A stretch of DNA of 38,552 nt, taken from Escherichia phage vB_EcoP_PHB20. Positions 8,376-8,950 of this stretch are shown here, in pieces. How positions within the stretch are numbered: position 1 is the stretch's first letter; each line of letters opens with the position of its first letter. The position numbers and the translations under genes are program-made. The stretch lies in sequence record MN481366.1; one strand, written 5' to 3'. Below the pieces are notes generated by a model. It was not told where the DNA came from. It was given only the letters and a program-made list of their open reading frames with translations, and ran no database searches.

Positions 8376-8636
8376 ATGTTTCGACTTCATTACAACAAAA
8401 GCATTAAGAATTTCACGGTTCGCCATGCTGACCGTTCAATCGTATGTGTGAGCGAGCGCCGAGCTAAGTTGCCTCTTATTGGTGACACAGTTCCTTTGGC
8501 ACCGAACGTCCACATCATTATCACCCGTGGTGACTTCGAGAAAGCAATAGACAAGAAACGTCCGGTTCTTAGTGTGGCAGTGACCCGCTTCCCGTTCGTC
8601 CGCCTGTTACTCAAACGAATCAAGGAGGTGTTCTGA
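8376..8636 (+). CDS. 1.6: gp1.6 (86 aa)
   Basis: Track ORF directly after phi1.6; size and position match T7 1.6. Confidence 0.8.
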
Positions 8637-8950
8637 TGGGATGCATAGCTTGCTTAGAGAAAGATGACCGTTACCCACATACGTGTCAACCTGTGGCTAA
8701 ACCACAAGATATAGATGGCGTTCGTACTCCGAGCCATTACATGCTGTTTGACGACATTGAGGCTATCGAAGTGATTGCCCGTTCGATGACTCGTGAACAG
8801 TTTAAGGGGTATTGCTTCGGGAACATCCTTAAGTACCGCCTACGTGCAGGTAAGAAGTCCGAACTGGCTTACTTAGAGAAGGACATGGCGAAAGCTGGGT
8901 TCTATGGTGAACTGTACGAGAAACATAAGGATAAGTGCTATGATTCTTAA
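8636..8950 (+). CDS. 1.7: gp1.7-like nucleotide kinase, short form (104 aa vs 196 in T7)
   Basis: Contains [16 protein letters not shown] and C-terminal [49 protein letters not shown], both T7 gp1.7 segments as recalled, with the middle missing. Confidence 0.8.

Follow-up and report, generated by a model that had tools for sequence, protein, structure and literature searches.

A natural 104-residue short form of the gp1.7/DUF3310 nucleotide kinase in a T7-like phage genome

Results and Discussion

Gene 1.7 of the phage genome described here encodes a protein of 104 residues in which a small Cys/His knuckle is joined by a short linker to a C-terminal DUF3310 core. The window, that is, the whole stretch of DNA that was analyzed, comprises the 38,552 nucleotides of Escherichia phage vB_EcoP_PHB20 (MN481366.1). 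The gene is very probably functional and under selection, and its architecture is a normal one for the family. Judged from its conservation, the protein is probably an active dTMP/dGMP kinase. Comparison with relatives showed that the core is the only universal part of the family and lies at the C-terminus, and that the N-terminus is made up of optional, interchangeable modules. The 104-residue gene is in this respect ordinary and already annotated, the short form having been in public records since phage Berlin.

Gene 1.7 and its surroundings

The gene lies in a T7-like early/middle region with the following features.

8231 to 8253, plus strand: T7-type promoter TAATACGACTCACTAAAGGAGGT, the phi1.5 equivalent, read from the sequence; the equivalent is annotated in T7 and 13a
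8348 to 8370, plus strand: T7-type promoter TAATACGACTCACTAAAGGAGAC, the phi1.6 equivalent, which drives genes 1.6-1.7-1.8-2; the equivalent is annotated in T7 and 13a
8376 to 8636, plus strand: gene 1.6 (86 aa), the upstream neighbor, the TGA of which overlaps the gene 1.7 ATG by one base
8622 to 8629, plus strand: Shine-Dalgarno sequence AAGGAGGT, 6 nt 5' of the gene 1.7 ATG and within the end of gene 1.6, read from the sequence
8636 to 8950, plus strand: gene 1.7 coding sequence, taken from the list of open reading frames, 104 aa and a TAA stop; the short, knuckle plus core form of the gp1.7/DUF3310 nucleotide kinase
8940 to 9044, plus strand: gene 1.8-like open reading frame, 34 aa from the ATG at 8940, matching phrog_1312 (E=5.4e-16)

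The start codon of gene 1.7 (8636-8638) and the stop codon of gene 1.6 (TGA, 8634-8636) share a single base in the sequence TGATG, and the earlier observation that the two genes abut was therefore correct. Gene 1.7 occupies the syntenic position between gene 1.6 and genes 1.8 and 2, and is translationally coupled to gene 1.6. Its Shine-Dalgarno context recurs in T7, in K1F and in an 84-residue metagenomic form. The encoded protein ends in ...KCYDS and has a calculated mass of 12.05 kDa. From 8376 to 9260 the DNA does not differ from that of Enterobacteria phage vB_EcoP_IME390 (genus Teseptimavirus; 100% identity), and the corresponding IME390 coding sequence (YP_009814078), which RefSeq names nucleotide kinase, equals gene 1.7 of the window at 100% identity.

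The possibility was considered that the short product is an artefact of start codon choice or annotation, the true product being longer or split. This is extremely unlikely. The open reading frame cannot be extended in the 5' direction because 8636 is the first in-frame start codon past an upstream stop. Moreover, T7 has an identical junction between genes 1.6 and 1.7, and the T7 modules that are missing from the protein are encoded nowhere in the window. The MTEREQ...C-x3-C-x4-C-x2-C...LGEIRAMDPRK module was absent from the open reading frame and from the window as a whole, where the best tblastn E values were 0.13 and 0.57.

Several other properties of the region were recorded. The gp1.6 protein matches Pfam PF06726, "Bladder cancer-related protein BC10" (E=4.5e-21), and the gp1.6 homologues of Berlin, T7M and K11 are named "BC10 family protein" in RefSeq. 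In a different frame, the gene 1.8-like open reading frame overlaps gene 1.7 at its 3' end. It can be aligned with the T7 and 13a genes 1.8 and carries no annotation in the RefSeq record of IME390. A phi2.5-type promoter, TAATACGACTCACTATTAGGGAAG, is located at 9256-9278 on the plus strand and starts on the TAA stop codon of gene 2. The window is without T7 genes 1.4 and 2.8, and gene 3 (GTG start, 10023) directly follows gene 2.5, as it does in 13a.

Organization of the 104-residue protein

The protein was divided into three parts.

8642 to 8686, plus strand: Cys/His knuckle, C3-x2-C6-x8-H15-x-C17, with the pattern CxxC-x8-HxC
8687 to 8710, plus strand: Pro-rich linker QPVAKPQD, which in the alignments occupies the place of the T7 four-Cys module and long linker
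8711 to 8947, plus strand: C-terminal core, I26-S104, a predicted three-helix unit that contains DUF3310 (residues 29-90, nt 8720-8905)

The knuckle is probably a small zinc-binding motif, and the core is presumed to be the catalytic part. A DUF3310 (PF11753) match scored 77.1 bits (E=1.1e-21), the Pfam gathering score being 24, and covered profile positions 1-58 of 60. This match, together with the complete DNA identity to an annotated coding sequence, confirmed that the 104-residue form proposed in the initial annotation is real. DUF3310 is the sole recognisable domain in short and long gp1.7 forms alike, and in T7 gp1.7 it is found at residues 122-184. The PHROG family phrog_2585, "nucleotide kinase", also matches the window protein (E=2.6e-59), and the PHROG "nucleotide kinase" families match it through the C-terminal part of their profiles only. 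No NCBIfam model matched the protein, a search of PDB sequences gave no homologue of gp1.7, and fold comparison returned no informative match for the window protein.

The core is highly conserved. When 150 diverse representatives were compared, 22 core positions were conserved in at least 90% of them, and all 22 consensus residues occur in the window protein (V29, P32, H34, Y35, E42, I44, I47, A48, G58, C60, G62, N63, K66, Y67, R68, R70, G72, K74, K86, Y90, L93 and C101). Aligned with 88 distinct close homologues, the core is ungapped and near-invariant.

Segments shared with and missing relative to T7 gp1.7

The proteins of T7 (196 aa) and 13a (179 aa) are both considerably longer than about 100 residues, so that the window protein is short relative to either of them. 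Alignment with T7 gp1.7 showed that both of the T7 segments previously thought to be kept are indeed present, the N-terminal segment at T7 residues 20-35 and the C-terminal one, which runs from PSHYMLFDD to the end, at T7 residues 124-196. The number of residues missing between them had been put at roughly 90, which was too high. By count it is 74, T7 having 88 intervening residues and the window protein 14. The difference in total length between the two proteins is 92 residues, and the remaining 18 represent the N-terminal leader of T7.

The missing material is of three kinds. The window protein is without T7 residues 1-18, the leader MGLLDGEAWEKENPPVQAT, which is also missing from 13a. It is without T7 residues 36-103, a 68-residue four-Cys module (C-x3-C-x4-C-x2-C) with an internal start at Met42. 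Finally, it lacks 7 residues of the T7 linker, and the linker that it does have is of the Berlin type rather than the T7 type. The missing part thus does not consist of dispensable linker only, since it includes a module that is predicted to fold on its own. However, despite this prediction, the four-Cys module is missing from most relatives.

Short and long forms across the family

HMMER was run exhaustively against 1.84 billion representatives (E<=0.001) and yielded 2314 relatives. The best 150 of these 2314 range from 82 to 341 aa with a median of 155, and the match is nearly always placed right at the C-terminal end; 20 of the same 150 are stand-alone proteins of 110 residues or fewer. The nearest relatives were then grouped as protein clusters at 90% identity. 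Among the 120 nearest clusters, lengths varied from 84 to 181 aa. The sequence from PSHY to the end was 72-74 residues long and ungapped in all 120 clusters, in contrast to the N-terminal part, which varied from 11 to 109 residues (124 in T7). Three of the short architectures were represented as follows.

Knuckle-only architecture, the type found in the window: 24 of the 120 clusters, the largest class
Leader-only architecture (98 aa): 4 of the 120 clusters
No-module architecture (84 aa): 2 of the 120 clusters

Among proteins that match the knuckle pattern, the four ligand positions are constant by definition and the intervening positions vary. The N-terminal modules occur in many combinations and include the MGLLDG... 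leader, the CxxC-x8-HxC knuckle, the four-Cys module of the T7/K1F type, other Cys-containing modules and the Pro-rich linker. The combinations in individual phages were as follows.

T7, 196 aa: leader, knuckle and four-Cys module
13a, 179 aa: knuckle and four-Cys module
T7M (T3 group), 163 aa: unrelated, Cys-free N-terminus
K11, 161 aa: four-Cys module and another Cys module
K1F, 155 aa: four-Cys module only, without the knuckle
CICC 80001, 105 aa: knuckle only
Berlin, NC-A and IME390, 104 aa: knuckle only

The knuckle-only architecture of 104-105 residues spans phages of two genera. The 84-residue form, which consists of the core only, occupies the slot 1.6, 1.7, 1.8, 2 of a 32-kb T7-like contig and has the same start context. 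In a tblastn search, the T7 middle module was found in 356 phage records, as compared with 1258 for the whole 104-residue protein. A 50-residue query spanning the junction was also used to find genomes with the short form, but its result was confounded by the joining of HSPs from long forms, and the classification of the 120 clusters was used instead. Homologues of gp1.7 with 107, 116 and 194 aa appear in published genome tables (PMC4925675).

Since only the C-terminal DUF3310 core of about 75 residues is universal, the natural forms of 84-104 residues delimit the minimal gp1.7 unit. These forms are handy minimal constructs for work on structure and mechanism, and for mapping the part of gp1.7 that triggers Avs5-type defences.

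Some N-termini had unusual compositions. The T7M protein (443-934 in the numbering of the extracted locus) has an N-terminal region of 88 residues that is free of Cys and unlike that of T7, only the C-terminal core being common to the two. In two metagenomic proteins the N-terminus contains two successive N-terminal units. P0001 (158 aa) has two full CxxC-x8-HxC knuckles, and in P0004 (162 aa) a full knuckle is preceded by a degenerate CEAC...PHVG copy. The order in both is ...KPQDKEGVL-MGLLDG...CIAC...HTC..., and these N-termini have the appearance either of a gene 5' end that was partially duplicated in tandem or of a remnant from upstream that is read through.

Predicted structures

An AlphaFold2 model of the 104-residue protein, computed with 65 homologues, had a mean pLDDT of 77. 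The three helices of the core (residues 41-49, 53-73 and 77-100) were predicted with pLDDT values of 81-93, the knuckle was moderately confident (69-75) and the linker weak (52-54). The long architecture was modeled with P0039, a T7-like form of 180 residues. The overall confidence of this model was low (pLDDT 62, pTM 0.35) and it was used solely to see whether the module and the core are ordered separately; because of the pTM of 0.35, no claim is made about packing between domains. The middle module (approximately residues 27-83) was ordered, with block means of 66-85 that were mostly near 80. The linker that follows (84-116) had a pLDDT below 50, and the helical core had values of about 68-76. 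Such an arrangement is in keeping with the four-Cys module being an accessory domain that is attached to the core by a tether.

Function of the short form

According to Tran et al. (2010, 2012), T7 reportedly makes two forms of gp1.7, of about 22 and about 18 kDa, with equal kinase activity, and the C-terminal half alone is said to be required for sensitivity to dideoxythymidine. T7 gp1.7 is also reported to be metal-independent and roughly a 12-mer. Internal initiation at Met42 would agree with the masses calculated for T7 gp1.7, which are 22.18 kDa for the full-length protein and 17.71 kDa for a product that starts at Met42. The small form reportedly has a mass of 17,782, as against 17,711 calculated from Met42, a difference of 71 Da, and the reported figure is not relied on here. 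We know of no solved structure and no known active site for gp1.7, and to our knowledge kinase activity has been reported for the T7 protein only. The phenotypes described for other DUF3310 members are toxicity and abortive infection (PMC8306868, PMC9339283).

T7 gp1.7 acts as a nucleotide kinase on dTMP and dGMP, the products being the diphosphates (PMC11897194), and DUF3310 is the domain that has been implicated in this activity (PMC9339283, PMC10700055). In view of these reports and of the core-only and knuckle-only forms that exist in nature, the 104-residue protein would most likely act in the same way, producing the diphosphates of dTMP and dGMP and supporting phage DNA synthesis. The short form could differ in its kinetics if the four-Cys module aids assembly or regulation.

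An alternative is that the short form has lost the ability to act as a nucleotide kinase and is retained because it serves some other DUF3310 function, for example host takeover, toxicity or interaction with a host factor. Mycobacteriophage DUF3310 proteins are highly toxic when over-expressed (PMC9339283, PMC10700055), the lactococcal SaV protein has DUF3310 and is toxic (PMC8306868), and T7 gp1.7 itself activates the EfAvs5 defence (PMC11897194). Furthermore, the fold is unlike that of any known kinase and there is no canonical P-loop, the sequence being AGKKS and not GK[ST]. However, T7 gp1.7, for which kinase activity is reported (PMC11897194), shares this unusual core. The core of the window protein is 82-92% identical to those of T7 and 13a at the DNA level, has every conserved residue and is indistinguishable from the cores of long forms. 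We consider the loss of kinase activity unlikely and prefer the reading of the protein as a kinase.

Origin of the short allele

The initial annotation had proposed that the gene may be a natural deletion variant of the nucleotide kinase. It is a natural short variant of the family, but to call it a deletion is too simple, given that Berlin, NC-A and CICC 80001 have the same architecture and that the linker is of the Berlin type.

A recent, simple internal deletion in a long gene 1.7 of the T7/13a kind, within the lineage of the window, was weighed in this context. In its favor, DNA identity to T7/13a is 93-97% in the flanks of the gene (gene 1.6; genes 1.8 and 2 for 13a) and 90-92% in the knuckle. 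Likewise, the linker QPVAKPQD can be loosely aligned to the distal T7 linker KPEVTPTD. However, the 42 nt between the knuckle and PSHY (8687-8728) are only 60-62% identical to T7/13a, as against 95% for NC-A, 86% for Berlin and 83% for CICC 80001. In addition, short alleles of one architecture are found in two genera with dS up to 1.0, and core-only, leader-only and knuckle-only forms are all known. A recent deletion is accordingly improbable. A deletion between the two copies of ACCTG, a 5-nt repeat near the ends of the missing segment in T7 and 13a, was considered and rejected; read from the alignment, the copies differ in codon phase, and joining them would introduce a stop codon.

In Berlin, a phage of another genus, the flanks have only 53-63% DNA identity to those of the window and are far more diverged than gene 1.7. 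The short allele behaves as a cross-genus cassette, because its linker is like that of Berlin, the flanks of the window are like those of T7/13a, and the flanks of Berlin are diverged. The mosaic of linker and flanks points to cassette exchange. By this route the short allele would probably have reached a T7/13a-like genome through homologous recombination, with the knuckle and the core serving as the flanking homology.

Four short alleles were compared pairwise according to Nei and Gojobori. The dS values were 0.33-1.0 and the overall dN/dS 0.036-0.082, with 0.015-0.05 for the core and 0.04-0.16 for residues 1-31. The high dS at low dN/dS indicates that the short architecture is old and has been under purifying selection, the knuckle included. 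These values also bear on the possibility that gene 1.7, as a non-essential gene, is decaying, the shortening being a loss-of-function lesion on the way to a pseudogene. Gene 1.7 is dispensable for the growth of T7 in the laboratory (PMC9712115). However, the open reading frame is intact and has a strong Shine-Dalgarno sequence, both the core and the N-terminal part show low dN/dS, and the length is constant across diverged phages, with many independent clusters and contigs having the short form. Decay of the gene is therefore very unlikely, and a selected, functional short gene is the reading that we adopt.

In both T7 and 13a, AAGGAG is found 8 nt 5' of an internal ATG (Met42 in T7), exactly at the start of the four-Cys module. 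The K1F protein opens with the four-Cys module straight after gene 1.6. In the numbering of the extracted loci, the positions concerned are 2255-2275 in T7 and 510-530 in K1F. The T7-type gene has the look of a K1F-type gene onto which a 5' end of the knuckle type may have been fused. Such a fusion, if true, would explain the smaller, internally initiated gp1.7.

Possible significance for phage defence

DUF3310 proteins recur as triggers or targets of abortive infection and as toxic proteins (PMC11897194, PMC8306868, PMC9339283); in lactococcal phages, SaV sets the sensitivity to AbiV (PMC8306868). It is conceivable, though we regard it as doubtful, that gp1.7 has at its N-terminus a site of rapid cassette shuffling, occupied by the leader, the knuckle, the four-Cys module, the T3-type module or none of these, and that the modules present tune the oligomerisation or regulation of the kinase, or its visibility to host sensors (EfAvs5, or AbiV in the case of SaV). 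The short allele with the knuckle only, as it spreads by recombination from genus to genus, would then be a variant for defence evasion or host adaptation and not a neutral length polymorphism. The shuffling of N-terminal modules in a protein sensed by Avs5 might merit a dedicated study.

Comparison with known systems

The reaction reported for T7 gp1.7 (PMC11897194), the conversion of dTMP and dGMP to dTDP and dGDP, is the same as that of the P-loop NMP kinases, thymidylate and guanylate kinase. The window protein does not resemble these enzymes in structure. The Walker A motif GxxxxGK[ST] is absent from its sequence, the model is all-helical and not Rossmann-like alpha/beta, and the searches gave no match to a kinase family or fold.

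The PF11753 family at large, including SaV and the mycobacteriophage DUF3310 proteins, has a helical core of approximately 60-75 residues in common with the window protein. The shared motifs are P-x-H-Y, E..I..IA, G.C.GN..KYR.R.G.K, K...Y..L and C. In contrast, the N-terminal regions of the SaV and mycobacteriophage proteins are unrelated to that of the window protein.

T7 gp1.7 (NP_041967) is encoded in the same slot, 1.6, 1.7, 1.8, 2. There, too, gene 1.6 (7906-8166) and gene 1.7 (8166-8756) overlap by one base, and the Shine-Dalgarno sequence is that of the window. The knuckle residues C3, C6, H15 and C17 are identical to those within T7 residues 21-35, and the DUF3310 cores of the two proteins align with invariant columns from P32 on.

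The window protein is closest in architecture to three proteins that are already annotated as nucleotide kinases. Yersinia phage Berlin gp1.7 (YP_918991, 104 aa) has the same architecture and length and 93% protein identity, and the Berlin record itself notes a similarity to T7 gene 1.7 "at C-terminus". The Teseptimavirus NC-A protein (104 aa, cluster P0003) has the same architecture and is 98% identical to the window protein, and the 105-residue protein of CICC 80001, also a Teseptimavirus, is likewise of the knuckle-only type. The proteins of Berlin, NC-A and CICC 80001 differ from the window protein by point substitutions only.
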